Positions 3,938 through 28,484 are shown, counted from the stretch's first letter. The stretch is 64,000 bases of DNA from Candidatus Cloacimonadota bacterium (GCA_019454875.1 JACFNL010000001.1:7511-71510); one strand, 5' to 3'. Translations and numbers: made by a program. Notes: generated from the sequence alone by a model not told the origin.

Positions 3938-3986
3938 GAAATTCTCCCCATTTTGGCCATATTTTTTGTCATTATACTGAAACCCC

Positions 3987-5492
3987 TCAGTTCGGGCAAT
4001 CAACTCCAGGTGTATTGCAGGGTTTACAGTTACCAGAAGCTGTCAAAACCATACTTGCACCCTGACTTGTAAAGCATGCAAAATCGGCTCCAGCCCCAGG
4101 AGAAAAGGTACCTGTCTGTAATAACACCCTCTTACCAAGATTATTGCAAACCACAGAATCTTTTAGTGCCGAGGACCCATCCGTATCACAAAACAAAACT
4201 CTTCCAGTAGTCAAAGCACTGGTTGCCGAACTGTCAAAACGGGCCACTACCTGACCACCTACTGAAAAATCAGTTAATACAACGGTTGTAGTCTTAGCCG
4301 TCAGCTCCTCAGCGGCAGCATTCACAATTGCTCTGAATTCAAATTGCAAATTGGGATTTGTCGGGACCCTTCCATCACCTAAGGTAATGTATGCCCTCTC
4401 CCGATCCCTTAGGGGATTTGTATTCACAATTGACTCCGTGGGACTGGGGCGATAGGCAATCACTGCGGTTTGAGATGGTAAAACATCCGCGGACACTCCG
4501 ATTTGTGCCCCCGTGAAAAACTTATAGGGTGACCCTGGATAATCCACACTGGACACAGGCGGATTCTGATTAAAATTTATAACAATCTGCTGCTGCCTTT
4601 CCGTTTCCCTGTTTCCCCGTAAATCTACGGAATAAAACTGAAACAGATAAACCCCTTCCTGATTCAGAGGCACTGTGGCCGTAGAAATGGATTGCACAAA
4701 AGTACTGGTCACAGCCGAAAGAGTCGAGTCTGGCTTATCCTTTTCCGAAACCTTATAAAACAGAGTGGCGTTTGCCTCATTGTTGGAAAGCACTACATTA
4801 ATAGGGCTTCGGTGTGGGCCGGCAATAGTATCTGCTCCAGTTGAAAAGATCACGGTTACCGGGGCAATGTTATCCACTAACTCAAAGGAAATGGGCACTA
4901 CATTGCTGCCCGTAACAGGCTGTCCCTTACCAACTAGTTCCGTACTTTCTGCCGGAGAAAGATTCACGGAAATTTCTGGAGTGGACAAAAGCGGGACACA
5001 GGAACTGTTTGCTGGATCGCAGGCACTGGAATAAGCATGAATCTGCACCAGCCTGCCAGCACCTGCTGGTACACGAAGCACAGCAAACTGCTGGGTGACG
5101 GGATAAACACCTTCTGCTAGTTTAACCCGGGCTGAATCTGTGACCACAACCCTGAATCTGGCAATCTGATTTTTGACGGACTGGGACAGGGAATAAAACT
5201 TCAGATACTCCTTTTGTCTGGTCAATTCACTCAAATTTTCAGCGGAGTCATATAAAAATGTTCCTCTTTGTCGGTATCCATCCATCTGAAGCAAATCAAA
5301 ATCCGATACTGCCGAAAGCGACAGGCTGGCCACAGAAGGAAAGACAATGCGTAAATTGGACTCCTGAATCGATGTATCGGACAGGCCGGAACCCAGGCCA
5401 GAACCCTTGGAATCACCACCTCCACCGCCGCCACCGCAGCCTGACAAGAGAAGCACCATAAATAGTATCAAGAGTAAGGTTTTGTATCCCAT
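3987..5492 (-). CDS. Lipoprotein with a poly-Gly linker and Ig/fn3-like β domains, about 501 aa
   Basis: The start is set at the internal ATG at 5492, giving MGYKTLLLILFMVLLLSGC followed by GGGGGGGDSKGSGLGSGL (lipobox LSGC). The ORF-track start at 5708 would overlap the upstream gene by 160 nt. The motif 'YLFQFYSVDLRGNRE' is typical of bacterial Ig-like/fn3-like domains. The C-terminus is Cys-rich with a 'VCNN' motif shared with the 1286..3937 protein. Confidence 0.65.
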   Translation of the reverse strand: MGYKTLLLILFMVLLLSGCGGGGGGGDSKGSGLGSGLSDTSIQESNLRIVFPSVASLSLSAVSDFDLLQMDGYRQRGTFLYDSAENLSELTRQKEYLKFYSLSQSVKNQIARFRVVVTDSARVKLAEGVYPVTQQFAVLRVPAGAGRLVQIHAYSSACDPANSSCVPLLSTPEISVNLSPAESTELVGKGQPVTGSNVVPISFELVDNIAPVTVIFSTGADTIAGPHRSPINVVLSNNEANATLFYKVSEKDKPDSTLSAVTSTFVQSISTATVPLNQEGVYLFQFYSVDLRGNRETERQQQIVINFNQNPPVSSVDYPGSPYKFFTGAQIGVSADVLPSQTAVIAYRPSPTESIVNTNPLRDRERAYITLGDGRVPTNPNLQFEFRAIVNAAAEELTAKTTTVVLTDFSVGGQVVARFDSSATSALTTGRVLFCDTDGSSALKDSVVCNNLGKRVLLQTGTFSPGAGADFACFTSQGASMVLTASGNCKPCNTPGVDCPN

Positions 5493-5547
5493 GGATCTGT
5501 TATCGTGAAAATAGGCAGGAGTACTGAGTTCTGGAGGCAAAATTGTT

Positions 5548-6906
5548 TTACCAGCTCGGTAAGGGCCAGAATCCAATCTGAGTTTCATCAGCGTCCGAAA
5601 TTGTAAGCCTTTCTCTTTTGAGGCTCGACAAATGAACACGATAAATTTCAAAATTGTTATCATAATTGCTGGTGAGGTAAATCCATTGATTCTCTGGATC
5701 AAGAACAAGATTGCGGTTTAAAAAGTTGTGTTTCCAAAGAACTCTTGTGTGTTTATTCTGAATGTCAAACTCACAAAGAACTGTATCCCACCCCTCCTTC
5801 AGAGAAACCCTGCTTGCTGAGTAGTAAAATCGTTCTGAATCAGAACTGAAAACACCAAAAATCTCATCTACAGGCTCCACCAGTACCGGGATTCTCTCCT
5901 GTTTTGTAGGATCTGCGAGAAGGAAGTTACTTCTGATGTTAGAATCCACGCGCTGCAAGGCCAGAAAATCCCCTTTAGGAGACAAAATAAATTCAGGGTA
6001 ACTATCAAAACCCTGAATAAAAGGGACTGGCTCTGCCCCATCGGATTGACGAAAAATCCGGAAGGGCTCACCACGCATCTTTCTGGCACTAAACCAGAGT
6101 GTGCCCCGATCTATTTCAAATCTTTGCACCGAGTCAAATCCTTCCAGAACCTTTTGTGCGTCTTCAAATCCTTCCTTTTTCAAATCAAAGGGAATATGAA
6201 ACAATTGTGAATTTTCCCCATCACGACGCAAAAACCAGATTTTACCATTTACATACCTTGGGTGATATTCATCTTCCCGGATTCGGGATAGAGCCTGAAA
6301 CAGTCCTGAATTTTGATCATAATAAAACAGATCCCGATCCACCCCCCCATCTGGATGTTCCCTGTCTTTGGCAAGTTCAGATAAAAAACCAAATCCCTTC
6401 TGAGGTACGGTAATAGCTCCAAAAACCACCTCTGAGAATTGCCGTAAATCCCTGCCATCCGTAAGCATGGTGTAAACCTGATTGTTTCTAAGCAGATAAA
6501 GTCGTCGCACCACTGTATCCTCAGGCTCTTTGACTGCCTCAGTACTAATTCCAATGGTTATGGAAGGAGTATCTGGTAAAACCTCAGTTTGGGTCTGGGC
6601 CTTTATCTTGATAAGAACCCGTTTTAAACCATCTTTAGCGTATTGGTTGGATGGATCATATTCCAGGGCCTGACTGTAATAACGGCTGGCAATTTCTGGA
6701 TATCCAAGCTCTTCAAAACAATAGGCCGCTCGGTTAGCCACTGCCGATGCCTGGGGCCTGAGCTTCAGGTATTCCCGATAGGCAGCCACTGCATGCACCA
6801 GACGATTGGCATTCTGATGCTCAACCCCTTCCCGAAACAGAGCATTTAAATCCCTTGAGTAGGAGCAGGAAATAAGAATCAGGCACAAACCATATCTACT
6901 GAGCAT
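5548..6906 (-). CDS. TPR-repeat lipoprotein with a C-terminal β-rich (propeller-like) domain
   Basis: N-terminus MLSRYGLCLILISCSY (lipobox-like). TPR-like helical repeats occupy the first ~100 aa (AYREYLKLRP..., YYSQALEYDPSNQYA). The remainder is a long β-rich region rich in aromatic residues. Confidence 0.65.
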   Translation of the reverse strand: MLSRYGLCLILISCSYSRDLNALFREGVEHQNANRLVHAVAAYREYLKLRPQASAVANRAAYCFEELGYPEIASRYYSQALEYDPSNQYAKDGLKRVLIKIKAQTQTEVLPDTPSITIGISTEAVKEPEDTVVRRLYLLRNNQVYTMLTDGRDLRQFSEVVFGAITVPQKGFGFLSELAKDREHPDGGVDRDLFYYDQNSGLFQALSRIREDEYHPRYVNGKIWFLRRDGENSQLFHIPFDLKKEGFEDAQKVLEGFDSVQRFEIDRGTLWFSARKMRGEPFRIFRQSDGAEPVPFIQGFDSYPEFILSPKGDFLALQRVDSNIRSNFLLADPTKQERIPVLVEPVDEIFGVFSSDSERFYYSASRVSLKEGWDTVLCEFDIQNKHTRVLWKHNFLNRNLVLDPENQWIYLTSNYDNNFEIYRVHLSSLKRERLTISDADETQIGFWPLPSW

Positions 6907-10219: not shown

Positions 10220-11869
10220 ATGGCATCCTGCGTATGCAATTCTGATATGCGCTTTATTACCTGGTCCCAGATATTCATCCAGCTGCTTCTCATTTGTCAT
10301 CCCATTTTTGCAATGGATGACAATCTGCAATCGGATCTTTTATCCCGCATGTCCCTCCGAGAGCACTTTGCTACCACCCTTTCCCTTCGGGAACAGGAAC
10401 GCTATGACCTTGAATCTCAACTAGATGTTCTTCGGGCCACCGAACCCAGAAACCAGTATGAGGCTCAACAGAGAGCCAGACAGGAAAGAGAACTTCTATC
10501 CCAGATTCAGGTTGTGGAACGCTCGGTTATCAGCACCCAAAGGCAGCTTCAGGATGCTGAAGTTCGTCTTAATGAAGCCAGAACCCAGGCTTTAGCCCAA
10601 AGAGACCAGAACACAACAAGAGATATCAGTGTGATCACGGCCGCCGCCAATGTTGCCCACACTCAGACGGCCTTACAGGCAGTAAGGGATATGCCCTTAG
10701 CCTTCAACCGGCCTCCAGTCCCAACAACCGGGGTAATCGCCCAGAACGGAAACATCACAACCACCATTGAGCAATGGAGAGATGGAAGCCATTACAGGGT
10801 AAACCGTTATACGGATGGTCCCAATCAGGGCCGATTTGCCGAGGGTGGACGACAAAAACTCACCGATGCAGAAGTTCGTCAGATGGGTGGACAGCTAAGA
10901 ACCCAGCATGTAGAAGGGCTTCGCACCAATATCACGGCATCCGAGACCCGTTTAGCCGGACTTCGTCAGGAGTTACAACAGGCCCCAAGCTCTCAAAGGG
11001 CAGAGATTCAGAATCGTATTGATCAGCAGACCAGAACCCAGCAGGAACTCAGACAGGAGCTGCGCAGTTTAGAGGCCCGCCCTGTACGAGACTTTATTGT
11101 GAGTGGTGTCTCTTTTGCCGCCATGTCCGTTGCCATTCAGGCAAGTTTTAACATTATCAGCCAGACTGTGCAGAATGACGGTGATTTGAGTAAGGTGGAT
11201 CTGGGACAGGCTACAGCTTTTGTTACCGAGGCCGCCTTCTGGAGAGATTTGTCCGGAACCTATTTTGGGGGAATGGCTGGCAGAGCCCTTACCGCCTTTT
11301 TACCTGGGCCATTTAGAATCCTGGGTACTATTGCTGGTGGCACAATTGGTACACAACTTGTTTCAGGTCGCTGGCGTGAAGCCGACTGGGCCATGCTTGG
11401 TGCACAAACCATTGGAAGCACTATAGGCTACCTTTTAGGTGCGTTTATTGGCTCCTTGATGGGACCATTGGCTCCCATTGCCATCATAGCGTTCAGTATT
11501 GCGGGAGCCTGGCTTGCCGAAAAAGCCCTGGAATGGATTCGTGGGGTCTTCTCTCCAAAAATCACTTCATATCGTCCTGATGACTCCGGTATGTCGGATT
11601 CCGCTGTAATTGATACCTTCCGTGAGGCATTGGATGATTCCAGTTTTCAGGAGCTGGAAAATCTGTCCACGGAACAGTTAAGGCAGCATTTATGGGACAC
11701 TCACAAGGAACTTGTGGCCCATCAGAGTTCAAGCAACCAGGTCTTAGGTGATGAACAGAGACTGAACTGGAATGCTGGTCTTAAAGAAAAACTGATTGCC
11801 CACGAAAAAGTGCGCCGTGCCTTAGACAGAAGACGCATGCAGCATGCTGACTTTAATCTGAACTCCTAA
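10220..11869 (+). CDS. Coiled-coil protein with a C-terminal glycine-zipper membrane domain
   Basis: A possible internal start MRFITWSQIFIQLLLICHPIFA gives a signal-like N-terminus. It is followed by ~270 aa of Gln/Arg/Glu-rich predicted coiled coil. Then come 2-3 hydrophobic helices full of GxxxG zippers (GTIAGGTIGTQL, GSTIGYLLGAFIGSLMGPLAPIAIIAFSIAGAWLA), and an acidic C-terminal tail. Confidence 0.65.
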   Translation: MASCVCNSDMRFITWSQIFIQLLLICHPIFAMDDNLQSDLLSRMSLREHFATTLSLREQERYDLESQLDVLRATEPRNQYEAQQRARQERELLSQIQVVERSVISTQRQLQDAEVRLNEARTQALAQRDQNTTRDISVITAAANVAHTQTALQAVRDMPLAFNRPPVPTTGVIAQNGNITTTIEQWRDGSHYRVNRYTDGPNQGRFAEGGRQKLTDAEVRQMGGQLRTQHVEGLRTNITASETRLAGLRQELQQAPSSQRAEIQNRIDQQTRTQQELRQELRSLEARPVRDFIVSGVSFAAMSVAIQASFNIISQTVQNDGDLSKVDLGQATAFVTEAAFWRDLSGTYFGGMAGRALTAFLPGPFRILGTIAGGTIGTQLVSGRWREADWAMLGAQTIGSTIGYLLGAFIGSLMGPLAPIAIIAFSIAGAWLAEKALEWIRGVFSPKITSYRPDDSGMSDSAVIDTFREALDDSSFQELENLSTEQLRQHLWDTHKELVAHQSSSNQVLGDEQRLNWNAGLKEKLIAHEKVRRALDRRRMQHADFNLNS

Positions 11870-13347: not shown

Positions 13348-15261
13348 TCATCTGCCTGGACGGGCTGAGGGACGAACTGTCTGCTGGTTCATCACCTCAG
13401 GCAGGGGCCAGGGATTTTCCGATGGGATTTTTAAGGCATCTACCTCACGGGCCTCCCAGGATTTTTGCTCAAGACGATCCTGAAGCCCCTGAATTTTCTG
13501 TCTTAGGCGCGAATATGCGTTTACGCTGTCATCCTCAACAACAGAGTCAACCTTTTCCATAGCCTTGTTAAGAAACTCATCTTTTCTCTGAATGGTCACA
13601 GGAATTACCTGGACTGTGGTTGTGAAATCCTGGTTGTAACGAACTCTAAGACGAGGATGATCTGTTCCAATACCCGTAGCTGTGAAGCGGAAGAACACAA
13701 AGGCCGTAGACTGCGGAGCAAGGCTTGGGATAGTTTGTACATTATCACCGCGAAAAAATAACAGTCTTCTCAGGTTTTGCTTTTCCATCAAGAGATGAAC
13801 ATTTTGTAAGGTCAGATACCGGGATGGATTAAATACTCTGGCTATCAATACGCCTGGATCACTGTGCAACAGAATTTCTCTATCCAGCTCAAATGTGATT
13901 TCTGGTGGAGAAAGCTGGAATATACCCAATGCTGTTTCCGACAATTCCACAAAAACACGACTATAATAGTCTTCGGCTGCCAATATAAAAAACAGGGTAA
14001 AATACATACCCCGCACTGCCTCAATCACCTGGGCTTCGATAAACTCCCGGCGACCATTGGTAAACACCGCATTGTTGGCCAGTTCAAAAATCGGAGATCT
14101 TTGTAAGGGTGTCCAGGTCTGATTTTTTTCGTCCCAGCCTAGAATTCGTTTCATATCCTTACCAATAGCGGCAAACTTCCTCTGTTTGTCTTCCTCATTT
14201 TTTTTGATTAAGGCAATCTGTCGCACAAACTCCTGCTGGTCCTTCAGATTCTGAAAGGAGTACAAAAGTTCGATCCCCTGACTGACTTCTTCCCTGGCCT
14301 CAGTAATCTTTCTAGCCAGATCGAGCTCCAGACCAATGATTCGAAACAGTGCAGTAAAATCCTTGTAGTTTTCCACATTCTTGGGGTAACCCTGAGTCAA
14401 ACCAATCGTTGCTGGCAGTAAAGAGCGCAAATCAAAATCCAGATCAGGAACATTCAAAAAGGAGTTAAACTCTACAGGAAACTCAATTTTTTCCTCGAGT
14501 CCACGAGCATAACTTGAAATAAACTCTGCCAGCCAGGGCTTAAAATTCAGCTCCCCAAAAAACCGGCCCAGATAATCCTGTACCTGCTTGCCAAACCTCA
14601 GACTGATTTGGGCCGGGGTTCGTCCTTCTTCTATCCGGTAAGTAGGATCCATCAAACCCCCAAATATTTTCATGGAGTTTTCCAGCATCCGTGATCGGGC
14701 ATAGGCCCAAAGGCTTAACCTGAGTACAGAAGCTGTTTCAATTTGCTGACTGCCAATTTTAGGGTAAGGAGCAACAAAAAAAGTCCGGACAATTTTATCC
14801 TTGGCCCCAATCCAGTTGGAACGAATTCCACTCTCTACAGAAAGCTCAAGTCTCACCCTGTGAATGGGACGAAATTTTTCATAAAGGTGTCCTGGAATCC
14901 GTACGGAACTCAGATCACGATCCCGATCCGAGATTGCTCTCTCAAATTTAAGCTGCCATTTTTCTGGAAAATAGGGGTAATTAACATCTTCATAATAACG
15001 AATCTGAATTTTGGAAGAAGCAGAATCCCTGCCTGAGCTATTATCAAGAGTAATTGCAATGCCTAAATCCTGGGCCGGATGCGTAATTACAAAGGCCTCC
15101 CCTTCTTCGGGAATTATCTCGGTCATGACACTAAGTGCATGAAAAGCCCGGTAAGCAATAGTTGCCCGGCCAACAATCTGCAACTCGGAAGCAAAAAAAA
15201 CCGGGGTCAGCAAAACTGCAAGTAACAAACAGTTATAATATGCTCTCAATTGTGGCATCAA
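13348..15261 (-). CDS. Secreted hypothetical protein (637 aa)
   Basis: Signal-peptide-like N-terminus MMPQLRAYYNCLLLAVLLTPVFFASE. No recognisable catalytic motifs. It overlaps the dnaX 3' end by 29 nt and is convergent with the FapA-like gene, with stops 7 nt apart. Confidence 0.6.
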   Translation of the reverse strand: MMPQLRAYYNCLLLAVLLTPVFFASELQIVGRATIAYRAFHALSVMTEIIPEEGEAFVITHPAQDLGIAITLDNSSGRDSASSKIQIRYYEDVNYPYFPEKWQLKFERAISDRDRDLSSVRIPGHLYEKFRPIHRVRLELSVESGIRSNWIGAKDKIVRTFFVAPYPKIGSQQIETASVLRLSLWAYARSRMLENSMKIFGGLMDPTYRIEEGRTPAQISLRFGKQVQDYLGRFFGELNFKPWLAEFISSYARGLEEKIEFPVEFNSFLNVPDLDFDLRSLLPATIGLTQGYPKNVENYKDFTALFRIIGLELDLARKITEAREEVSQGIELLYSFQNLKDQQEFVRQIALIKKNEEDKQRKFAAIGKDMKRILGWDEKNQTWTPLQRSPIFELANNAVFTNGRREFIEAQVIEAVRGMYFTLFFILAAEDYYSRVFVELSETALGIFQLSPPEITFELDREILLHSDPGVLIARVFNPSRYLTLQNVHLLMEKQNLRRLLFFRGDNVQTIPSLAPQSTAFVFFRFTATGIGTDHPRLRVRYNQDFTTTVQVIPVTIQRKDEFLNKAMEKVDSVVEDDSVNAYSRLRQKIQGLQDRLEQKSWEAREVDALKIPSENPWPLPEVMNQQTVRPSARPGR

Positions 15262-18978: not shown

Positions 18979-19971
18979 TCATAACCTCCTGGTACGGGCA
19001 ATCAGAAAAAAATCTGCCAGTACCACAGCTAACATGGATTCCACAATAACCGGGGCACGGTAGGCCACACATGGGTCATGCCGGCCTTTGAGTTTTAAGC
19101 ATACAGGATTTCCCCGATTGTCTACAGTTTTCTGAGGCAAAAATATTGAAGCTGTAGGTTTAAAACTGACCCGTACCACTAAAGGCTGTCCGGTACTTAC
19201 CCCTCCCAGAATTCCACCGGCATGATTGGATAAAAATCCATTATCATCCATTTCATCATTGTGTTGAGAACCTTGCATGCTGACACAGTTACGCCCCGAA
19301 CCAATCTCCACACATTTGGCTGCCGGAATGGACATCATGGCATAAGCAATCCTGGCATCAAGCTTTTCATAAACCGGTTCTCCCAATCCAGTGGGAACTC
19401 CAGTGGCCACAACCTCAACCAGACCTCCTAGAGAGTCTCCCCTCTGTTTTGCCTTTAGAATCGCTTCCTGTATTTCATCTGGATCCTGATACTCTCCTAC
19501 CTGAACCACTCTTGCCGAAATAACAACCGAGGGCGGTAGTATCTGCATGGCTACGGCTCCGGCAATTACTCGGGCCACGGTTTCTCTTGCACTAGCCCGC
19601 CCTCCCCCGTGAGGATCCCATATCCCGTATTTTTTATCCCAGGCATAATCAGCATGTCCTGGACGGTATACACCTAAAAACTCCTGGTAGGCATTGGACT
19701 TTACATCCTCATTTTTAACCAAAAAACTTAAGGGAGCCCCCGTTGTAATTCCATCAACAAGCCCAGATAAAAGCTCAAACTCATCGGACTCTTTACGGGA
19801 ACTTGTGTAAACACTCAGTCCGGGCCTGCGTCTATGAAGCAAATTTTGAATCATTTCAAGGCTCAGATGAATTCCTGCCGGAACCCCATCTAAAACCACC
19901 CCTATGGCTTTCCCATGCGATTCTCCCCAGGAGGAAAAACGATAGAGAATACCAAAGGAATTAAGCCCCAC
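18979..19971 (-). CDS. aroC: Chorismate synthase
   Basis: Full-length match to the AroC family: N-terminus MGLNSFGILYRFSSWGESHGKAIGVVLDGVPAG, plus ...RRRPG..., GGRASARETVARV and GGILGG motifs. Confidence 0.92.
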   Translation of the reverse strand: MGLNSFGILYRFSSWGESHGKAIGVVLDGVPAGIHLSLEMIQNLLHRRRPGLSVYTSSRKESDEFELLSGLVDGITTGAPLSFLVKNEDVKSNAYQEFLGVYRPGHADYAWDKKYGIWDPHGGGRASARETVARVIAGAVAMQILPPSVVISARVVQVGEYQDPDEIQEAILKAKQRGDSLGGLVEVVATGVPTGLGEPVYEKLDARIAYAMMSIPAAKCVEIGSGRNCVSMQGSQHNDEMDDNGFLSNHAGGILGGVSTGQPLVVRVSFKPTASIFLPQKTVDNRGNPVCLKLKGRHDPCVAYRAPVIVESMLAVVLADFFLIARTRRL

Positions 19972-22705
19972 GAAAACCGACCTTCACCGAATCCCCCCAA
20001 CCCAGGATCTCAAATTCACGGCCAGTTCTGCTTAAAAGCTCCCAGGCTCTACGGTAGGAGCTTCGAGCCAATGCATCTTTTTGTGCCAGTTCCCCAATAC
20101 AGGAGGGCAAAATCACATCGGGTTGTATCTCCTCAATAAGCTGATAAAACAAATCCAAATCTCTTGTTTCATCACTGATAGGCAAAGGGACAAACAAAAG
20201 ATGGGTTTTAAAGTCCTTTCCTGCCTGTCGAATCACTTGCAATGCAGAACGATTATCCACCTCGCCAAGCACCAGAAGGTTCAACTTTTCTGTAATACTG
20301 ATACGAAAAGAACGCATATCAATATCAGTCACCATCGGGTAGCGGTAGCGGCCTGGAAGAGCCTCGATCTGAATGGACATATCATAAGGTCCCAAAGAAT
20401 ACAGTTCCCTCTTCTCCCATGCCTCAAATCCAATGACTCCATTCAGACACAGATTTTCCATCCCTGAGGGTACAATCACCAGTTTGTCATCACTAATCAT
20501 GCGGTTCACAATATCCAGATCCAGGTGATCTGGCAGTCTGTGAGTGACAAATGCAATATCTAAAAGCCTGGTGATTTCTGGAAATACATCGGGACGGATT
20601 TTCCAGTACATATCCCATACATGCTGGCAGGAAACTACATCGATGCCTAAATTCAGGGTTGGGGTCTCAAGGATATACCCCCCGTTATACATCTGATGAA
20701 TCAAAAGGCCATCTTCCACATCGTGGACTTTTAACTGATTAAGAACCCTAAGCATCCTTCTCTCAAAAAAATCCTTGAGCTGAGGACTTTTGGAAATTGC
20801 CGGAAAAGCCAGGATTCTATCCATTTCAAAAAGAGCTTCCCTATGTTCTTCCGACTGAAAACGAATGCTTTTAATCTTGTCGAGTGCCGATTCTACCCTC
20901 TCCAGTGATTTGCGAATAGCTGGAGTTCCGTACACTACAAACTGGGAGTTAAACCCTCCAAATCCATCGTAAACCTTGCTGATGTTATCTGGATCATCCA
21001 TCCAGTGCTTTTTATCGACCAAAAACTTATAGGCATGGGTGCCCTGGTCTTCAAATTCCAGTTCCACGGACCAGACGCCCCCCTCCTCTTTTTGCATGGG
21101 GGTTCCGTCCTTCCATTGGTTAAATGACCCCAGAACTTCCACGGTTTGTGCATCTCCTCTATATCTGAGGGTAACTTTATTGTCGCGAATCTGTGGGTAA
21201 CTAAAACCTGGGCTTAATACCCGTTTTTTTGCGGACCGTACAGCTTCTTTAGCCTGAACAACTCCACAGCCCTGGCGTTCCACCGGAACATTTTCCAGTC
21301 TCTTGGCCGTCTGCATAAGAATTTCTTTTACATTTTCAGGGCTTAATGAGGCATTAGCCTCCAGCATCTGCGCAATAATTGAGCAGACAATAGGGGCAGA
21401 AAAAGAGGTCCCATCCACATGCTGGTAGTGTGGGCTAATCAATTTGAATTCCCGCACCTTCTGTTCCATAAAGTTTTTTTTGCCCTGAAAATCCAGACCC
21501 TGCAAGGCCATAAAAAAAGGAATGGGATAATTGTAGTTATCCAGAATTTCTTCAAAATGCTTGGCCGTTCTGGCATGGGCCAGTTCCCATACCAGTTCTG
21601 CCTCACGATAAAACTCAGTGCCGGGTAGTGTCGGGGCTGCCACCCATATACCGGGAGCAATAATTTCCGGCTTCAGGATTCCGTCAGCCGTCACCCCATA
21701 ACTGGAGTGATACATATTATGAGTCCTTGATTCCAGGGAATTTCTGTCATCAAGCCCCCCCACAGTGATCACACTAGGACTGTTTCCCGGTGGGGTTACC
21801 CTCATCCAGCTTTCATTTCCGGCCGCCACTACAACATTGATTCCCGCCTGAATGGCCTCCTCAGCAGCATGATTGATGGATGATTCCCTAAATGAAGCTG
21901 CTTCATCCCCCGCACCTAGTGAAATGTTTAGAATCCGCAGATTGTAGCGTTTCTGTTTACGAATAGCCCACTCAATACCTGAGATAATAGCCTCAGTTGT
22001 AAAACCTTCCTGTCCCATCACTTTTAGCAGGGCTACATTGGCTTCGGAGGCAATTCCCTTATAAAGTCCATTGCTCAAATATCCATTCCCTACAGCACTG
22101 ACACAGGTTTGCATCCCATGCCAGCTATGAATATCCGGTTTTTCAAAATTGGATTTTGCCGCATTCGGAGAGCCCAGATCCTTATATGCAACCACACGGC
22201 GATAGGGTTTCATAATGTCGGGATGAGGATAAAATCCCCCATCCAGAAAGCCGATGCAGATTCCCTTACCCGTGTAGGCTGGATCGGCATCAAGTCGCAA
22301 AGGTGTTGGTAGAATTGTATATTCTTCTTTTCTACAGATAACTCTGGTACTTTTTAACTCCCTGACAAACTCTGCTTCCAGATTCTTTTTCAACAGTTCT
22401 TCCAGACCTGCCTGATTCATTTTATGAATCCCGGATCCAAACAGAAGTGAACCTGCCTGACTCATTTGCTGCCGCAGACGAATCAAAGTTTCATGGGGTA
22501 ACTGTCCCATCCATTCATCCTGAATTTTGGCCCGGATAACTTCCGTGGAAATTTTTGCCAAATATCCAATATCAAGTCCGGTTGTATAATAAAGCTCAAT
22601 CAGCAATCGCTCTTCACGGGAAACTTGTTCCGAATCAATTTCTTTCCAGGTACGGGCCTTGAGGTTCTTATCGAGCTGCAAACTATAAAAAAAACTCTCT
22701 ATCAC
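19961..22705 (-). CDS. Multi-domain protein: an N-terminal region, a subtilase (S8) domain, an AMPK-β-type carbohydrate-binding module (CBM48-like), and an MBL-fold domain with a variant metal motif. No signal peptide.
   Basis: The ORF frame runs to 22741 (TTG). The likely start is the GTG at 22705, preceded by GGAGGT and overlapping the stop of the upstream small ORF (GTGA). S8 triad context: GICIGFLDGGFYPHPD (Asp), SWHGMQTCVS (His), NISLGAG (oxyanion Asn), GTSFSAPIV (Ser). The CBM region VTLRYRGDAQTVEVLGSFNQWKDGTPM...HAYKFLVDKKHWMDDPDN matches the AMPK β-subunit glycogen-binding domain (GSFNNW...YKFFVDGQW..DP). The C-terminal MBL fold (GGYILETPTLNLGIDVVS...DIAFVTHRLPDHLD) has HRLPDH in place of HxHxDH. 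Confidence 0.8.
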   Translation of the reverse strand: MIESFFYSLQLDKNLKARTWKEIDSEQVSREERLLIELYYTTGLDIGYLAKISTEVIRAKIQDEWMGQLPHETLIRLRQQMSQAGSLLFGSGIHKMNQAGLEELLKKNLEAEFVRELKSTRVICRKEEYTILPTPLRLDADPAYTGKGICIGFLDGGFYPHPDIMKPYRRVVAYKDLGSPNAAKSNFEKPDIHSWHGMQTCVSAVGNGYLSNGLYKGIASEANVALLKVMGQEGFTTEAIISGIEWAIRKQKRYNLRILNISLGAGDEAASFRESSINHAAEEAIQAGINVVVAAGNESWMRVTPPGNSPSVITVGGLDDRNSLESRTHNMYHSSYGVTADGILKPEIIAPGIWVAAPTLPGTEFYREAELVWELAHARTAKHFEEILDNYNYPIPFFMALQGLDFQGKKNFMEQKVREFKLISPHYQHVDGTSFSAPIVCSIIAQMLEANASLSPENVKEILMQTAKRLENVPVERQGCGVVQAKEAVRSAKKRVLSPGFSYPQIRDNKVTLRYRGDAQTVEVLGSFNQWKDGTPMQKEEGGVWSVELEFEDQGTHAYKFLVDKKHWMDDPDNISKVYDGFGGFNSQFVVYGTPAIRKSLERVESALDKIKSIRFQSEEHREALFEMDRILAFPAISKSPQLKDFFERRMLRVLNQLKVHDVEDGLLIHQMYNGGYILETPTLNLGIDVVSCQHVWDMYWKIRPDVFPEITRLLDIAFVTHRLPDHLDLDIVNRMISDDKLVIVPSGMENLCLNGVIGFEAWEKRELYSLGPYDMSIQIEALPGRYRYPMVTDIDMRSFRISITEKLNLLVLGEVDNRSALQVIRQAGKDFKTHLLFVPLPISDETRDLDLFYQLIEEIQPDVILPSCIGELAQKDALARSSYRRAWELLSRTGREFEILGWGDSVKVGFRGA

Positions 22706-22878
22706 TGGCTGACCTCCAGGACAAATCGACGGTAAAACCAAAGAACCTTCTGGGGAGATTCTACCCAGGCCGGATACCGTTCCCTAATCTTGTTAAGAAG
22801 ATGTTCCTCAGTCTGGAAATGATAGTCAAAAAGTTCCTTGTCGACATCGCGATTACAGATTGGGCAAAGTTGTTTCAT
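22702..22878 (-). CDS. Small C2H2-like zinc-finger protein (58 aa)
   Basis: The likely start is the ATG at 22878, 2 nt after the stop of the 22881..23300 ORF. The ORF-track version (85 aa, start 22959) overlaps that ORF. Sequence: MKQLCPICNRDVDKELFDYHFQTEEHLLNK..., a CxxC-x11-H-x5-H arrangement. Its TGA stop overlaps the GTG start of the subtilase gene. Confidence 0.45.
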   Translation of the reverse strand: MKQLCPICNRDVDKELFDYHFQTEEHLLNKIRERYPAWVESPQKVLWFYRRFVLEVSQ

Positions 22879-22880
22879 AT

Positions 22881-23300
22881 TTAATAAATCCCGTTTCGAA
22901 AGATCAGTTGACCTTGACTCCAGCCACCATACAAAGTGGGGCCAATATATATCTTGCAAGATAATCTTGACAATAAAGGTATCGATTCCATTTCCTCAAC
23001 AGAGTATCTATGTAAAAGATTCAGTGTAGAAGGCAAAATCTCTCTTAGATATGTGGCAACATCCTCTTTCCAGTCCCGATTATGATCAATGTATCCTGGA
23101 CTTAGACGAATCTGCATTTGTACAGGTTCATCCGTTGCACTGAGGCGAAACGAGACTCGGATCAGGGGACGGGAAACCTTTAATGCATGGGCATCCAGTC
23201 TGATTTTAAAATGTTTGCGATCCACTGGAAAAAACTTTTCTGAGTAGGCAAACACGGGGGAAAACCCAAACAGGAATATGACAAACAATATAAGCGGCAT
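22881..23300 (-). CDS. Small secreted hypothetical protein (139 aa)
   Basis: Signal peptide MPLILFVIFLFGFSPVFA. It lies between the coiled-coil protein gene and the zinc-finger miniprotein gene on the same strand. Confidence 0.5.
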   Translation of the reverse strand: MPLILFVIFLFGFSPVFAYSEKFFPVDRKHFKIRLDAHALKVSRPLIRVSFRLSATDEPVQMQIRLSPGYIDHNRDWKEDVATYLREILPSTLNLLHRYSVEEMESIPLLSRLSCKIYIGPTLYGGWSQGQLIFRNGIY

Positions 23301-23323: not shown

Positions 23324-24649
23324 TCAGAAGAAACTTAGGAAATCCATTTCACGAGACTCAAGAATCGTGGTAATAAAAAGCTCTCGAGGTGGATTTTTAA
23401 AGAGAGCTACAGGATCTTTGGCCTTAACACGGCTGTTATCCTTAACTAAAAACTGAAAGTCTCCCTCAAAAGTAATCTGGGTGGCATGACAGGTAAACGA
23501 AAGGCTTCGTTCCCCTATAGTCACCTGGGAATCACAGGGTGCCAAAACCCTTGGCCTTGACAGAGAAACAAGCTGTATAAAGGGGCGGTCTGGATGAAAA
23601 TTCTGCTTTACAACCCCTGGTTCTTCCAATGGCCACTTAAGGGTTTTGCCCTGCTTCATCTTGTTTTGAAACCAGGAAAAAAATGCCATATCCACAGCCT
23701 CGATATCCATGACATCAAGCTTCTGTAACTTAAGGCCATCCCTTTCCAGATTTTTTATCAAAAAACCCTTTTCCCATTCCAGTTTTTTAAGATTAAGCTC
23801 CAGCTCATTTCGTCCAACAGAAGCCTGTACTGCCTGCTCCAACTCTACAATTCTTTCAACATTGCGTCTGGCGGGAAGGGTGAGTAACAAAGAGTGATCT
23901 CGTACTGCCTGCACAAAAAACTCTGTTTTATCGGCCTCGGTCATTACAACCTTACTCTGCTTCTCAATCCTTTGGGAAAACTCGCTGGCATATTGTTCTA
24001 GCTGCACCTGAAACATGGCAGTCTGTGGGGAGTTTGTGCCATACATCTGCATGGAGCTAAGGGCCAGTGCAAACGAATCCCTTGCTCTTTCATCCACTAA
24101 AGAGGCCTTCCAGGAGTTCAAAAACGCCTTCTTTTCCTTATCTTCCTTGAGCTGGGGCAGCACCCTCAAGGCCGCATTTGTTACCGGGGTTTTTTCAGGC
24201 AACAAGGGAGAAGAGGACAGCAAGTCAGGGTTTTCATCCTTTTGATGAATCACAGCTTTCACAGAAGCACGGGCTACTTTGGCATCCACAAAACGACTGG
24301 CATATTCTCTTTTTAAAGACTCCAGTCTCTTTTGTTCTTCACGATATTTGGTCTGCATTCCCGAGGGAAGTAAAACAGCCTGATCCAGGGCCTGAAGCTG
24401 TCTATCCTTTACATCAATTTGCTGAACAACGGCCGAATCCACAGAATCCGTGATCCGATCATAAAAAACCTGTTCTTCAGTGCTACTTAAAACAATTGTA
24501 TTTCGCGTGGAAGCAAACTGGGCCTGGGCACGGGTTTCCTGCCTAAGTCCATCCAGAAAATCAATGCTTTGAGTCGAGTCCTCCGCCCTGATTTGACTGG
24601 CAAAAAAAACAAGACCCAAAAAACCAATTGGTCGAAACCAGCTCAACAT
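23324..24649 (-). CDS. Secreted coiled-coil protein with a C-terminal β-rich domain (about 441 aa)
   Basis: The start is set at the ATG at 24649, 1 nt after the stop of the upstream gene (TAAtATG); the ORF track extends to 24685. Signal peptide MLSWFRPIGFLGLVFFASQIRA. A long predicted coiled coil follows. The C-terminal ~100 aa are β-rich with 2 Cys. Confidence 0.65.
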   Translation of the reverse strand: MLSWFRPIGFLGLVFFASQIRAEDSTQSIDFLDGLRQETRAQAQFASTRNTIVLSSTEEQVFYDRITDSVDSAVVQQIDVKDRQLQALDQAVLLPSGMQTKYREEQKRLESLKREYASRFVDAKVARASVKAVIHQKDENPDLLSSSPLLPEKTPVTNAALRVLPQLKEDKEKKAFLNSWKASLVDERARDSFALALSSMQMYGTNSPQTAMFQVQLEQYASEFSQRIEKQSKVVMTEADKTEFFVQAVRDHSLLLTLPARRNVERIVELEQAVQASVGRNELELNLKKLEWEKGFLIKNLERDGLKLQKLDVMDIEAVDMAFFSWFQNKMKQGKTLKWPLEEPGVVKQNFHPDRPFIQLVSLSRPRVLAPCDSQVTIGERSLSFTCHATQITFEGDFQFLVKDNSRVKAKDPVALFKNPPRELFITTILESREMDFLSFF

Positions 24650-24650
24650 A

Positions 24651-26483
24651 TTAACGATCAGGATTCTCAGAAATCCGGAAAACATCTCGGGTTATCGATC
24701 CCGATGAGTTTCTGTATACAATGAGTTGATCCATAAAATTACCGGGTCCATCAGCCATACCATTGCGGCATTGTGTCGAACATTCCATATAATCTTCGTT
24801 GTAGTCATGAATATTACTTGGGGGAAAACTGCCAGTAGGCCTTTCCTCAAGCATATGTTTGGCCCTGGCCACTGCATCCATTGAGCCTTCACCCTCAGGA
24901 CGAACATCAGAACCCTGAGCTGGTGGCAGAACAGCACCTGATACTCTGGGTTCTACACCAGACGCGCCACTGTCACCATCGGCATCTGCATCACCGTCAA
25001 TCATGCGCCCCATCCCCCCCATAGGGCTTATGCCAGAATCACCCGAAGATGCCTGAGCATAATTCTGCACCTTTGGATTTGGGGTCCCCGTGCTTGCTGC
25101 TTCCCTGGCCAGGTTGGTGGCCTTGATCGGGGTTCCACCTGCATACAGAGTGGCTTGACGAAAAATGTCAGGATTGTTACGGGCCTCAATCAAGGACAAT
25201 TCACGAATGGCCGCAAAAGCACCGTGAGCTTCGGCTAGTTCTGCTAGCCCCATGTCTTCCCCACTAGTCAGTTTACGGCCTTCGCCTTGACCCACGACAG
25301 CAAAAAGCTTATCACGATCCAAGGAGTTGCTACCCTCTCCTGACAATTCGGAATCCGTGGTAGTGGTGCCATTTTTTGCCACATAAGCGGCATAATAAGC
25401 ATCTTTACATTCCGCACTGTCCGATGGTGGTTTTACCCCAAGTGTACCAGCTTCCTTACAAAACTTGAGTCTGGACTCATCATCTTTAATCTGCTCATGC
25501 AAGGTGGACAGTTTAGTTTCCTCAATCAGTCTTGGGATAATATCACCTGCAAAATTCTGATTCAATTTATCCACAAAGCTCTTGCGCCCACTTTCCTCGT
25601 CCAGATTATGTTTGCTGGATATACTTCCCACCGCATTCAAAAATGAGTCTGAGGGCACATAAATTGAGCCCTTGACACCATCCTTGAGTTTGTCTCCATC
25701 GGTCAGATTTTTCTGGGTGAACATATCAGCTTCCAGACGACATTCCGCCGCTGACTTTCCCTGTCCTGCGCACTGATTAAAGGCTGCAAGAATGGATTGG
25801 CTTAAATCAATATTATTTAAACCATCTTCGCCCAGACCAAAAAACTCCTGAGAAAAAAACTTGGTTGCATCCCCCTTGTATGGTTCGCCTTGGACATCAT
25901 CCACAGAAACCATGCGAGCACACTGACCCTCAAAAAACTCTGCCTGTTCTGCAGCACAGTCAATCTGTCGCTTAACAGCCGAATTCCGGTTCAAAAAATT
26001 TTCCTGAGCCGCTCTAGCCTCTGGTTTATCAATTTTACCCAGACCATACAAAATTGCGGCTGTGGAGGCAGATCGACTGATTCCAAAATTAGTGAAAAAT
26101 ACTTCCATGGTGGCACACTCTGCATCACCTGCACAGTTTGAACCTGATTTTGCCTTGGAGTTACCCTTTAGTCCAGCAATGGTGGAATCATTAACACCAT
26201 AACCAAACATCTGGGCACAATTTTTATCTGCCTGGGAGGCACAGGAACTGTCCTGGCATCGATCCACGCGGCAAGTTTCCATCATGCCCGCTCCGTAGTT
26301 CCCCACCTCATCACGCATGGACTCATCCAAGGCTCTGACATCCCTGCAAAAAATCTCCATGCTACGATCCAGTCCTGGTTTGGCACAATCCTGCTCCCAG
26401 CGATTTTGCGTTTCGGTTGTATTCGCCCAACACAAATTGGCAAGTCCCGCAATCAGTAAAACCGGAATTAATTTTTGCACCAT
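24651..26483 (-). CDS. Secreted Cys-rich protein (about 610 aa)
   Basis: The start is set at the ATG at 26483, with GAGGGAAG 8 nt upstream; the ORF track has a TTG at 26513. Signal peptide MVQKLIPVLLIAGLANLCWA. The N-terminal ~170 aa hold about 14 Cys. The central region is Gly/Asp-rich low complexity, and the C-terminus carries a further CxxxC. Confidence 0.65.
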   Translation of the reverse strand: MVQKLIPVLLIAGLANLCWANTTETQNRWEQDCAKPGLDRSMEIFCRDVRALDESMRDEVGNYGAGMMETCRVDRCQDSSCASQADKNCAQMFGYGVNDSTIAGLKGNSKAKSGSNCAGDAECATMEVFFTNFGISRSASTAAILYGLGKIDKPEARAAQENFLNRNSAVKRQIDCAAEQAEFFEGQCARMVSVDDVQGEPYKGDATKFFSQEFFGLGEDGLNNIDLSQSILAAFNQCAGQGKSAAECRLEADMFTQKNLTDGDKLKDGVKGSIYVPSDSFLNAVGSISSKHNLDEESGRKSFVDKLNQNFAGDIIPRLIEETKLSTLHEQIKDDESRLKFCKEAGTLGVKPPSDSAECKDAYYAAYVAKNGTTTTDSELSGEGSNSLDRDKLFAVVGQGEGRKLTSGEDMGLAELAEAHGAFAAIRELSLIEARNNPDIFRQATLYAGGTPIKATNLAREAASTGTPNPKVQNYAQASSGDSGISPMGGMGRMIDGDADADGDSGASGVEPRVSGAVLPPAQGSDVRPEGEGSMDAVARAKHMLEERPTGSFPPSNIHDYNEDYMECSTQCRNGMADGPGNFMDQLIVYRNSSGSITRDVFRISENPDR

Positions 26484-26520
26484 ACACTTCCCTCGCAACA
26501 CTACCTGATCCAATTATAAG

Positions 26521-26552
26521 AAAAAATAGCCCAAGCGCAATGCGTTGGGCTA
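26521..26552 (-). terminator. Rho-independent terminator (minus strand) between the Ser/Thr-rich protein gene and the Cys-rich protein gene
   Basis: A perfect 8-bp stem, TAGCCCAA/TTGGGCTA (26527-26534 / 26545-26552), with a 10-nt loop. On the minus-strand transcript it is followed by UUUUUU (26521-26526). It overlaps a TATAAT -10 element (revcomp of 26513-26518) for the downstream gene. Confidence 0.5.
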
Positions 26553-26570
26553 TTTAGTTAAATCCATTGC

Positions 26571-28484
26571 TTATGGACGATCCAAATTAGTTCTTACCAG
26601 GTCTTCATCAAAGTTTGCCATATTCTCGTAAACAAACTTCAAACAGTTGTCATAATCGTTGCCAAAATTCTCATCACAATACTTCAGTGTCTCTTCCGAA
26701 ATACCCTGTCTGAGCAGATCTGTCCGATTTTTGACAGCTTTATCGTCTCCGGGTACAACATTCAGTCCAGCACCCATCACAACTGCCCCATCACTTAAAG
26801 TATGGACTACCCGTTTATTTCCATCTTCATCCAGAACTGTCTCAGCCGAGACCGGAACTGCATTAAGACTCTGCCTGGCAACCAATACATCTCTCTCAAG
26901 CTCAGTAACTCTGAAACCACCAGCAGGCGCAACAGGCCGCTCATCCGGAGTGGTGGACTGGGGCCTTACACCACTATCAGGGGTGGTGCTAGCAGGAACA
27001 ATAACCACCTCGTTGTCAGTATCACTGTCTGACATTCTATCCACAGTGGTGGTTCCCGATGCCTCTGCTGAAAGCGTACGGTCAAATTCCTCAAACTCAG
27101 TGGTAGTGGGTTGAGAAGCCAGGCTTTGCTGCTCTCTATCATTGATGACATCATCTTCTGTAGTTCTTTGAGAAGCTGGACCACTGTAAAAACTAGACCC
27201 AGTCAAAGCCATATCATCAGGATTGGGATCTACCACCGGTTCATCGCCCCACACAATATCGGTAGGCAGGTAATCCGGTGTGGTTTCGACAGAACCTGCT
27301 GCCGCAACTGGCTCAGGGGAAGAACTTGTTACAGATGACTGTGCGGCAGATATAGCTTCTTCGGGGTCAACATCACCAGGAGTAACTACATTCTGGCCAG
27401 TCAAATCAGGAATAGGGCTTATTGCACCTGATTCAGGAGCTGTGCTGCCTTCTGATGAATTTCTTGGAGCTGTGACAATAATATCTTCCCCAATAACTTC
27501 AACAGAGGCCACATCTTCAGTCGCATCACCAGCGTCCGATGTTGTTGTACTAGCCGCTGTAGATGGTTGTGGACTTCTGGCGGCAGCCAGACCGGAATCA
27601 TTAGGACCACAAAAGGTATTGGGAGCCATTGGCCCAATAAAATCCGTACCACAGGCCGAATCAATCGGTCTGCCAGGTATTGGTAAATTGTCATTATAAA
27701 TTCGGATCTGTTCTACGGTAGCATCAGCAGGCAAACCACGGAAATTTTTGGCTGCATCAATAATGCTTTGATGTTCTGAGGGTTCGCTGGTACCCGCTAA
27801 AAGCTGAGTTAAGTCTGGAGTTGCTGCCGATGAGGTGGTTTGTGATGCCGGGGCTGGTGTTCCAGGCAATCCTGTTGTGGAAGGATCCTGAAAGTCAGCC
27901 AGCAGGCAGACCGCTCCGGGGCCTTCTCCCTTTTCAACTGAGGTAGCACGACCACTACCATCATAAGTAATTCTCATGCCCTCTTCATACTCAAGGGGTT
28001 TGCGATTACCCGCATAGCCTGTCATGACGATCTGCCCATCCCTGGTGTAAATATAACCTTCAGGGGATACGGTAAGGCCACTGTCTGGAGTGGGAACTAC
28101 AGGGGAGGAAGAGCTGGTTCGGGAAGCCGGCTGGCTCTGGGAGCCTGCAACAGGTTCAGACACCGGATCTACTCTTGGGGTTGTGCCAGCACTAGACACA
28201 GCCACAGCGGAATCCCGGGTGACCACGGCTGCTGGTGTGACAGCAACTGTTGGGACGGTGTTCACAGTGGCAGTAGGCTCTGGGGGACAGGGAACCCCTA
28301 CAACATCCCGAGTCCAGCAGGCTGCGGTTGCACCCACATTATATATTGCCGAACCCGCCCGGGAATACCAGGGTCTATCATCGGTCGTTTCGGTTGCAGC
28401 CATCAACATAGGTGTAACCGCAGTAAAACAGGTTACCATCAGCGATGAGCGAACAAAATTTCTGAAATTGTAATACTGCACCAT
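26571..28484 (-). CDS. Secreted Ser/Thr/Pro/Asp-rich acidic protein (637 aa)
   Basis: Hydrophobic N-terminus (…SSLMVTCFTAVTPMLMAA), with GGGAGG 8 nt upstream of the ATG. Low-complexity T/S/P/A/V/D/E-rich sequence dominates most of the length. There is a short YD-like segment (GYIYTRDGQIVMTGYAGN...MRITYDGSGRATSV). The C-terminal ~120 aa are more ordered, with 2 Cys. Confidence 0.6.
   Translation of the reverse strand: MVQYYNFRNFVRSSLMVTCFTAVTPMLMAATETTDDRPWYSRAGSAIYNVGATAACWTRDVVGVPCPPEPTATVNTVPTVAVTPAAVVTRDSAVAVSSAGTTPRVDPVSEPVAGSQSQPASRTSSSSPVVPTPDSGLTVSPEGYIYTRDGQIVMTGYAGNRKPLEYEEGMRITYDGSGRATSVEKGEGPGAVCLLADFQDPSTTGLPGTPAPASQTTSSAATPDLTQLLAGTSEPSEHQSIIDAAKNFRGLPADATVEQIRIYNDNLPIPGRPIDSACGTDFIGPMAPNTFCGPNDSGLAAARSPQPSTAASTTTSDAGDATEDVASVEVIGEDIIVTAPRNSSEGSTAPESGAISPIPDLTGQNVVTPGDVDPEEAISAAQSSVTSSSPEPVAAAGSVETTPDYLPTDIVWGDEPVVDPNPDDMALTGSSFYSGPASQRTTEDDVINDREQQSLASQPTTTEFEEFDRTLSAEASGTTTVDRMSDSDTDNEVVIVPASTTPDSGVRPQSTTPDERPVAPAGGFRVTELERDVLVARQSLNAVPVSAETVLDEDGNKRVVHTLSDGAVVMGAGLNVVPGDDKAVKNRTDLLRQGISEETLKYCDENFGNDYDNCLKFVYENMANFDEDLVRTNLDRP

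Follow-up and report, generated by a model that had tools for sequence, protein, structure and literature searches.

The window analysed here, a stretch of 64,000 nucleotides from Candidatus Cloacimonadota bacterium (GCA_019454875.1 JACFNL010000001.1:7511-71510), encodes a 914-residue protein that joins a subtilase (S8) domain to a CBM48 module of the AMPK-beta type and a metallo-beta-lactamase (MBL) fold, behind a recombinase-like N-terminal domain (Table 1). With a probability of roughly 0.55, we read the product as a cytoplasmic S8 protease that would be held on alpha-glucan by its CBM48, with a probably non-catalytic MBL domain and, as its partner, a small CxxC protein encoded directly upstream. 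The CBM48 would anchor the protease to intracellular alpha-glucan (glycogen), and glycogen-particle proteins would be the targets or the regulators of its proteolysis. The MBL domain would derive from a canonical metallohydrolase family repeatedly paired with alpha-glucan-binding modules; in the query lineage it is most likely a non-catalytic domain, or else one with a single metal at most, whose role would be structural, regulatory or in ligand binding. The CxxC protein may be a functional partner, a regulator or an adaptor. We know of no glycogen-targeted protease in bacteria; if the CBM48 does anchor an active subtilase to glycogen, the family would give bacteria a means of turning over or regulating enzymes associated with the granule. 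The function proposed for the S8-CBM48 family is wholly inferred from the comparisons given below.

The S8 catalytic apparatus is complete as judged by alignment. Pfam Peptidase_S8 (PF00082) matches residues 146-481 (E 2.4e-40; 139.1 bits against a cut-off of 21.8), and among solved structures the best match is Thermococcus kodakarensis Tk-SP (9ues/3afg; phmmer E 1.6e-31), with which the query agrees in the S8 fold and, residue for residue, in the Asp-His-Ser order and the oxyanion Asn. D155, H196, N297 and S434 are invariant in 120/120 homologues; this count and those for the CBM48 residues refer to the best 120 homologue clusters. Unlike the query, Tk-SP is secreted; its propeptide is of the I9 type, and a beta-jelly-roll domain forms its C-terminus. 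AprX of Bacillus subtilis, to which the query is likened only through the JGI label 'serine protease AprX' of several homologues, also has no signal peptide but is a single-domain protein of 442 residues. Relative to both proteins, the query has features of its own, namely the recombinase-like N-terminus, the CBM48 and MBL domains behind the S8 domain, and a helical insertion of ~55 residues (~365-420; 21446-21610, reverse strand) ahead of the catalytic Ser. The insertion is present in all homologues, is poorly conserved in sequence and occurs neither in Tk-SP nor in subtilisin BPN'.

The module that follows the protease matches AMPK1_CBM (PF16561) at residues 511-583 (E 1.9e-12; 47.7 bits against a gathering score of 26.8) as well as CBM_48 (PF02922; E 1.1e-6; 29.3 bits against 22.4), and its top PDB sequence matches are the carbohydrate-binding modules of AMPK beta2 and beta1. 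Four of its residues (W531, K560, W568 and N586), unchanged in 120/120 homologues, align with W100, K126, W133 and N150 of AMPK beta1. Mutation of W100, K126 or W133 in AMPK beta1 abolishes or weakens glycogen binding (PMC6274970). The query thus resembles the AMPK beta modules (1z0m, 4y0g) both in scoring above threshold with the two Pfam models and in keeping the equivalents of all four residues. The fourth of these, N150, the equivalent of N586, is one that we take to contact sugar in the beta1-cyclodextrin structure (1z0m). Since the four sugar-contacting residues are invariant in 120 homologues, tethering to glycogen is plausible. A CBM48 joined to a hydrolytic catalytic domain is also found in SEX4, a plant glucan phosphatase; in the query, however, the partner of the CBM48 is a protease and not a kinase scaffold, a phosphatase or a GH13 enzyme.

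The isolated C-terminal 323 residues of the query have no Pfam match at E<=10 (PF13483, PF12706, PF00753) and no PDB sequence match, so that the MBL assignment rests on homologue profiles and structure prediction. Homologous C-terminal domains match PF13483 in 14/25 cases and PF12706 in 11/25, and a family profile of these domains finds TM1162, 3kl7, UlaG and 3bv6, the alignments covering motifs II, IV and V. An AlphaFold2 model computed from the homologue alignment (mean pLDDT 93, pTM 0.92) has the alpha-beta/beta-alpha sandwich of the MBL superfamily; among the structural neighbours of the domain are phosphodiesterases as well as promiscuous esterases (NAPE-PLD, Igni18, CPSF73 and RNase J). 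The three-helix segment between the CBM48 and the MBL domain belongs to this MBL subfamily as an integral N-terminal extension, and stand-alone members have it too.

The S8-CBM48-MBL architecture occurs in 42 of the best 120 homologue clusters, from Cloacimonadota/UBP17-like metagenome-assembled genomes (MAGs), Wallbacteria and other bacteria. The broader S8-CBM48 family recurs in Cloacimonadota/UBP17-like, Wallbacteria, Sericytochromatia/Melainabacteria-type and further uncultivated lineages. Its invariant core is S8 plus CBM48; the N-terminus is absent in forms of ~505 residues, a Zn-ribbon-like CxxC domain in forms of ~550 residues and recombinase-like in forms of ~635 residues, and forms of ~920 residues add the three-helix segment and the MBL domain to S8-CBM48. 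The three-helix and MBL unit also occurs in proteins that lack a protease domain, preceded by a single CBM48 or a pair of them in proteins of ~400-500 residues (P0122, P0126, P0127, P0130, P0132, P0135, P0139, P0141), joined to CBM20 (P0201), and joined to CBM9 in proteins with Por secretion tails. Because this unit pairs independently with CBM48, the three-domain protein looks like a fusion of two CBM48-bearing units with one CBM48 in common. The protease-free fusions to CBM48, CBM20 and CBM9 link the MBL family to alpha-glucan, as does the position of one gene in a glucoamylase cluster: P0127, a CBM48 and MBL protein with canonical HxHxDH, is encoded at the end of a cluster for a GH15 glucoamylase, glucokinase, G6PD and 6-phosphogluconolactonase (L013 1-9224). 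Among the contexts of CBM48 and MBL genes, that of P0127 is the informative one; the contigs of P0131, P0128, P0141 and P0135 are short or uninformative.

Database names for proteins of the same architecture are generic only (S8 family serine peptidase, AprX), and we found no paper on an S8 plus CBM48 or an MBL plus CBM48 protein and no characterised member. A preliminary description of the window had not recognised the architecture as a described one; the architecture is not unique, being shared by the 42 clusters. Each domain is of an already known kind, and it is the combination that is recurrent and known to databases only by generic names.

The seven metal-ligand positions of the MBL superfamily (H116, H118, D120, H121, H196, D221 and H263 in standard numbering) map to residues 722, 724, 726, 727, 787, 815 and 869 of the query, where the canonical set HHDHHDH reads H-L-D-H-Y-E-C. 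Thus, 3/7 ligands are kept and 4/7 lost, with Leu724, Tyr787, Glu815 and Cys869 standing for His, His, Asp and His. Beyond motif II, the query reads ALPGRY in motif III, LVLGEVD in motif IV and PSCIGELA in motif V. It therefore differs from the UPF0173/Lactamase_B_3 group (Igni18 6hrg, TM1162 3x2z, UlaG 2wyl and 3kl7) in having HRLPDH for HxHxDH, no motif III His, GE for GD in motif IV and Cys for His in motif V, as well as in its three-helix N-terminal extension.

This degeneration is derived and progressive, because the wider MBL family (1157 representative clusters at E<=1e-3, 119 at E<=1e-30) has canonical HxHxDH and the same-architecture homologues are graded. Among these 42 clusters, the fully canonical HHDHHDH set is found in 11 and QLDHHDH in 10, motif II is canonical in 13, and the Cloacimonadota-like clade has HLDH[FY]EH. 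From fully canonical to 3/7 ligands, the MBL domains of the family provide a clear natural series on the origin and retention of pseudoenzymes. The nearest genome match to the query protein, 'bacterium UBP17_UBA6191' (92% identity), contains an orthologue with exactly the same substitutions. As dS against this orthologue is saturated, dN/dS is unusable as a ratio, and per-domain amino-acid identity and dN were used; identity is 97% for S8, 96% for MBL, 93% for the three-helix segment, 86% for CBM48 and 73% for the N-terminal domain. The 96% identity of the MBL domain in the face of saturated synonymous sites argues that this degenerate domain is retained under strong purifying selection. In the query lineage it is probably without classical two-metal hydrolase chemistry.

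The helical N-terminal domain is what remains of the catalytic domain of a tyrosine recombinase. The family N-termini, taken as a profile, match XerA (4a8e; E 5.7e-12, residues 108-216) and XerD (1a0p; E 5.7e-8), in both cases no further than the first half of the catalytic domain, and some homologues match PF00589 at about the gathering score; the query's own domain has no Pfam match to PF00589. The query shares this first half with XerA/XerC/XerD (4a8e, 1a0p) but lacks the complete R-K-H-R-H/W-Y set. With about half of the domain present, Arg-I replaced and the C-terminal half bearing His-x-x-Arg and Tyr absent, the domain cannot be a recombinase; a beta-hairpin is also deleted in the query's clade. 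It stands where secreted subtilases have their propeptide.

The CxxC gene is, by its arrangement, translationally coupled to the subtilase gene and a conserved partner of it: its TGA stop overlaps the subtilase GTG start by 4 nucleotides (GTGA). In Cloacimonadota-like loci and in Wallbacteria (L011) it immediately precedes the homologue, and it is also found upstream of the homologues at L016, in a genome of 5 Mb, and at L021 (P0058; Candidatus Blackallbacteria according to NCBI). The first ~60 residues of the ~550-residue S8-CBM48 proteins are homologous to its product (BLASTP 1e-10), which has no relative in Pfam, PADLOC or PDB. The fused CxxC domain of the ~550-residue forms has a second CxxC pair, which the free-standing 58-residue form does not have.

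The subtilase GTG is preceded at a distance of 7 nucleotides by GGAGG and is the likely start of the 914-residue protein, which is 100% identical to P0001, annotated at NCBI as 'MAG: S8 family serine peptidase [Candidatus Cloacimonetes bacterium]'. No signal peptide, membrane segment or hydrophobic N-terminus was found by Kyte-Doolittle analysis in the query or in eight diverse homologues (top 19-residue mean of the query, 1.37), and the N-terminal domains of the family, recombinase-like and CxxC, are cytoplasmic types. These features indicate that the protein is cytoplasmic. A secreted starch-binding protease was considered and rejected because signal peptide and membrane segment are absent. 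The predicted model of the full-length protein (pLDDT 88.3, pTM 0.80) suggests a compact assembly.

The domain matches of the protein lie far beyond chance level. Much of the preliminary description is borne out by these results: the complete D/H/N/S set of the subtilase is confirmed by the Tk-SP alignment and its invariance, the segment resembling the AMPK β-subunit module by two Pfam models above their gathering scores, and the lack of a signal peptide by the hydropathy analysis; the three domain assignments as a whole (S8, AMPK-β-type CBM, MBL fold) are supported by Pfam, PDB, profile and model evidence. The count of three domains was nonetheless too low, as it overlooked the recombinase-like fourth domain and the CxxC partner gene. 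The loss of the second His in motif II was correctly noted, but the degeneracy of the MBL domain was understated, given that only 3/7 ligands are left. Similarly, of the suggestion that the protein tethers a protease/hydrolase to glycogen, the tether remains plausible owing to the invariance of the sugar-contacting residues, while a bifunctional protease/hydrolase is unlikely for this protein because its MBL domain keeps 3/7 metal ligands, canonical sets being found in other family members.

Several observations weigh against a glycogen-anchored protease with a non-catalytic MBL domain. No glycogen gene is found among the subtilase neighbours or the ten largest open reading frames (ORFs) of the window, and the gene context is not consistently glycogen-related, the conserved neighbours in the clade being shikimate genes, a TPR protein and dnaX. 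Distant homologues have unrelated contexts; only two distant loci contain a debranching-enzyme gene within 8 kb, which is weak support for a glycogen link. The CxxC partner is absent beside P0022. In AMPK, CBM48 makes protein and ligand contacts too, so the conservation of its residues does not amount to proof of polysaccharide binding. In the MBL domain, both His residues of motif III are replaced in the query according to an alignment that is less certain for this motif than for the others; every three-domain homologue keeps D726, H727, D729 and E872, and C869 and E815 could hold one metal, in which case catalysis could still take place. The protein might instead be an AprX-type protease with a general housekeeping or stress function in the cytoplasm, its CBM48 being a regulatory module that contacts proteins or small ligands, a role which the AMPK beta module also has in the kinase complex, rather than an anchor to glycogen. 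The inconsistent glycogen neighbourhood would fit this, as would the JGI name of the homologues, the pTM of 0.80, which suggests a CBM packed in a compact assembly, and the nature of B. subtilis AprX, an S8 protease that is intracellular and belongs to the SOS regulon (PMC8767453). However, the four sugar-contacting residues are invariant across 120 diverse homologues, the partner MBL family has been joined independently to the carbohydrate modules CBM48, CBM20 and CBM9, and one context (P0127) is a catabolic cluster leading from alpha-glucan to glucose-6-phosphate; we consider the AprX-type explanation unlikely.

A bifunctional enzyme would require a catalytic MBL domain with a remodelled, probably single-metal site (D726, H727, E815, C869), which might hydrolyse a phosphoester or another ester located at or close to alpha-glucan, SEX4 being the analogue. 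The four residues invariant in all three-domain homologues, the 96% identity to the orthologue, the phosphodiesterases and esterases among the structural neighbours (NAPE-PLD, Igni18, CPSF73, RNase J) and the canonical relatives joined to alpha-glucan-binding modules are compatible with such an activity, yet 4/7 ligands are replaced, including both motif III His and the second motif II His, the query domain scores under the threshold of all Pfam MBL models, which do match its relatives, and no family member has a known substrate. We regard a second catalytic activity as quite doubtful. The subtilase could also be latent, kept inactive until a signal by the recombinase-like domain, the CxxC protein or both, acting like a propeptide or as an inhibitor in trans, with a possible stress, toxin-like or anti-phage role. 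The N-terminal domain occupies the I9 propeptide position and varies by lineage (none, Zn-ribbon-like or recombinase-like), the CxxC gene is translationally coupled and in some lineages fused, and there are weak generic PADLOC matches to 'subtilase' and IetS; however, the PADLOC and NCBIfam matches are limited to the generic S8 core and lie far under the family cut-offs, no IetA-like ATPase or defence gene is adjacent, and the gene sits amid housekeeping genes with conserved synteny. Latency of this kind seems improbable, although it and a glycogen tether are mutually compatible.

A bolder extension of the glycogen-anchored protease is an unlikely one. The CxxC protein and S8-CBM48 might together form a conserved bacterial module for glycogen-linked regulated proteolysis that reads or remodels the protein coat of the glycogen particle, as a prokaryotic counterpart of glycogen sensing by the AMPK-beta CBM. 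The MBL domain might ancestrally have been a glucan-directed esterase or phosphoesterase like SEX4 or laforin and have become a pseudoenzyme in the Cloacimonadota/UBP17-like lineage.

Table 1. Subtilase gene, its domains and key residues, and the upstream CxxC gene (window coordinates)
Feature	Position	Strand	Basis or remark
Whole gene, 914-residue four-domain protein	19961..22705	-	GTG start at 22705, stop 19961-19963
Helical N-terminal domain, residues 1-125, tyrosine-recombinase catalytic-domain remnant	22331..22705	-	Family profile, alignment
Subtilase (S8) domain, residues 131-495	21221..22315	-	Pfam, Tk-SP alignment, homologue conservation
D155 (FLDGG)	22241-22243	-	Catalytic Asp, aligned to Tk-SP
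H196 (WHGMQT)	22118-22120	-	Catalytic His, aligned to Tk-SP
N297 (AAGNE)	21815-21817	-	Oxyanion Asn, aligned to Tk-SP
S434 (GTSFSAP)	21404-21406	-	Catalytic Ser, aligned to Tk-SP
CBM48 / AMPK-beta-type glycogen-binding module (predicted), residues 505-591	20933..21193	-	Pfam, PDB matches, conservation
Three-helix segment, residues 592-662	20720..20932	-	Model, family representative search
MBL-fold domain, UPF0173/UlaG/Lactamase_B_3 group, residues 663-914	19964..20719	-	Profiles, model
MBL motif II, HRLPDH	20525-20542	-	Canonical HxHxDH, second His replaced by Leu
58-residue CxxC protein (MKQLCPICNRDVDKELFDYH...)	22702..22878	-	Directly upstream of subtilase, conserved partner

Membership of the IetAS system was examined and rejected for the subtilase: it scores 20.8 bits with the NCBIfam IteS model against a cut-off of 900, and the PADLOC matches cover the S8 core only. 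The locus has no defence-system signature, with neither an IetA-like ATPase nor another defence gene adjacent.

In a promoter and terminator scan of 15-29 kb, the number of sites was no higher than in shuffled sequence; the top sigma-70-like match (10/12 positions) lies at 22944-22973 on the reverse strand, ~66 nucleotides 5' of the ATG of the CxxC gene.

Downstream of P0099, a two-domain homologue, a 139-residue ORF and a YcaO-TPR protein are encoded (L016 9903-11880). These surroundings may constitute a neighbourhood of the ribosomally synthesised and post-translationally modified peptide (RiPP) type; the YcaO-TPR arrangement was seen in none of the other loci examined.

The gene order of the query's clade runs from Pfam-less unknowns through a 139-residue protein, the CxxC protein and the subtilase to shikimate genes, a TPR protein and dnaX. 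The 139-residue ORF of the window (22881-23300, reverse strand) has a hydrophobic, signal-peptide-like N-terminus, ends in ...GIY and belongs to no Pfam family; it keeps its position in all Cloacimonadota-like loci (L001-L005, L007, L009). Beyond it, at 23324-28484 on the reverse strand, are three large ORFs of 453, 620 and 637 residues without a Pfam match, two of which have hydrophobic N-termini and a high content of Ser, Thr, Pro or Asp. In the NORP72 locus (L009), the subtilase is preceded by ORFs of about these sizes. Further large ORFs without a Pfam family (E<=1e-5), of 905, 573, 549 and 637 residues, are located at 1286-5708 (reverse), 10220-11869 (forward) and 13348-15261 (reverse). 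On the other side, a chorismate synthase gene (330 residues; 18979-19971, reverse strand) follows the subtilase immediately and overlaps the stop of the subtilase gene by 11 nucleotides. In the NORP72 relative (L009 12764-18468), aroB, a fused aroD-aroE, a 508-residue gene with no assigned function and aroK lie between the subtilase and chorismate synthase genes.

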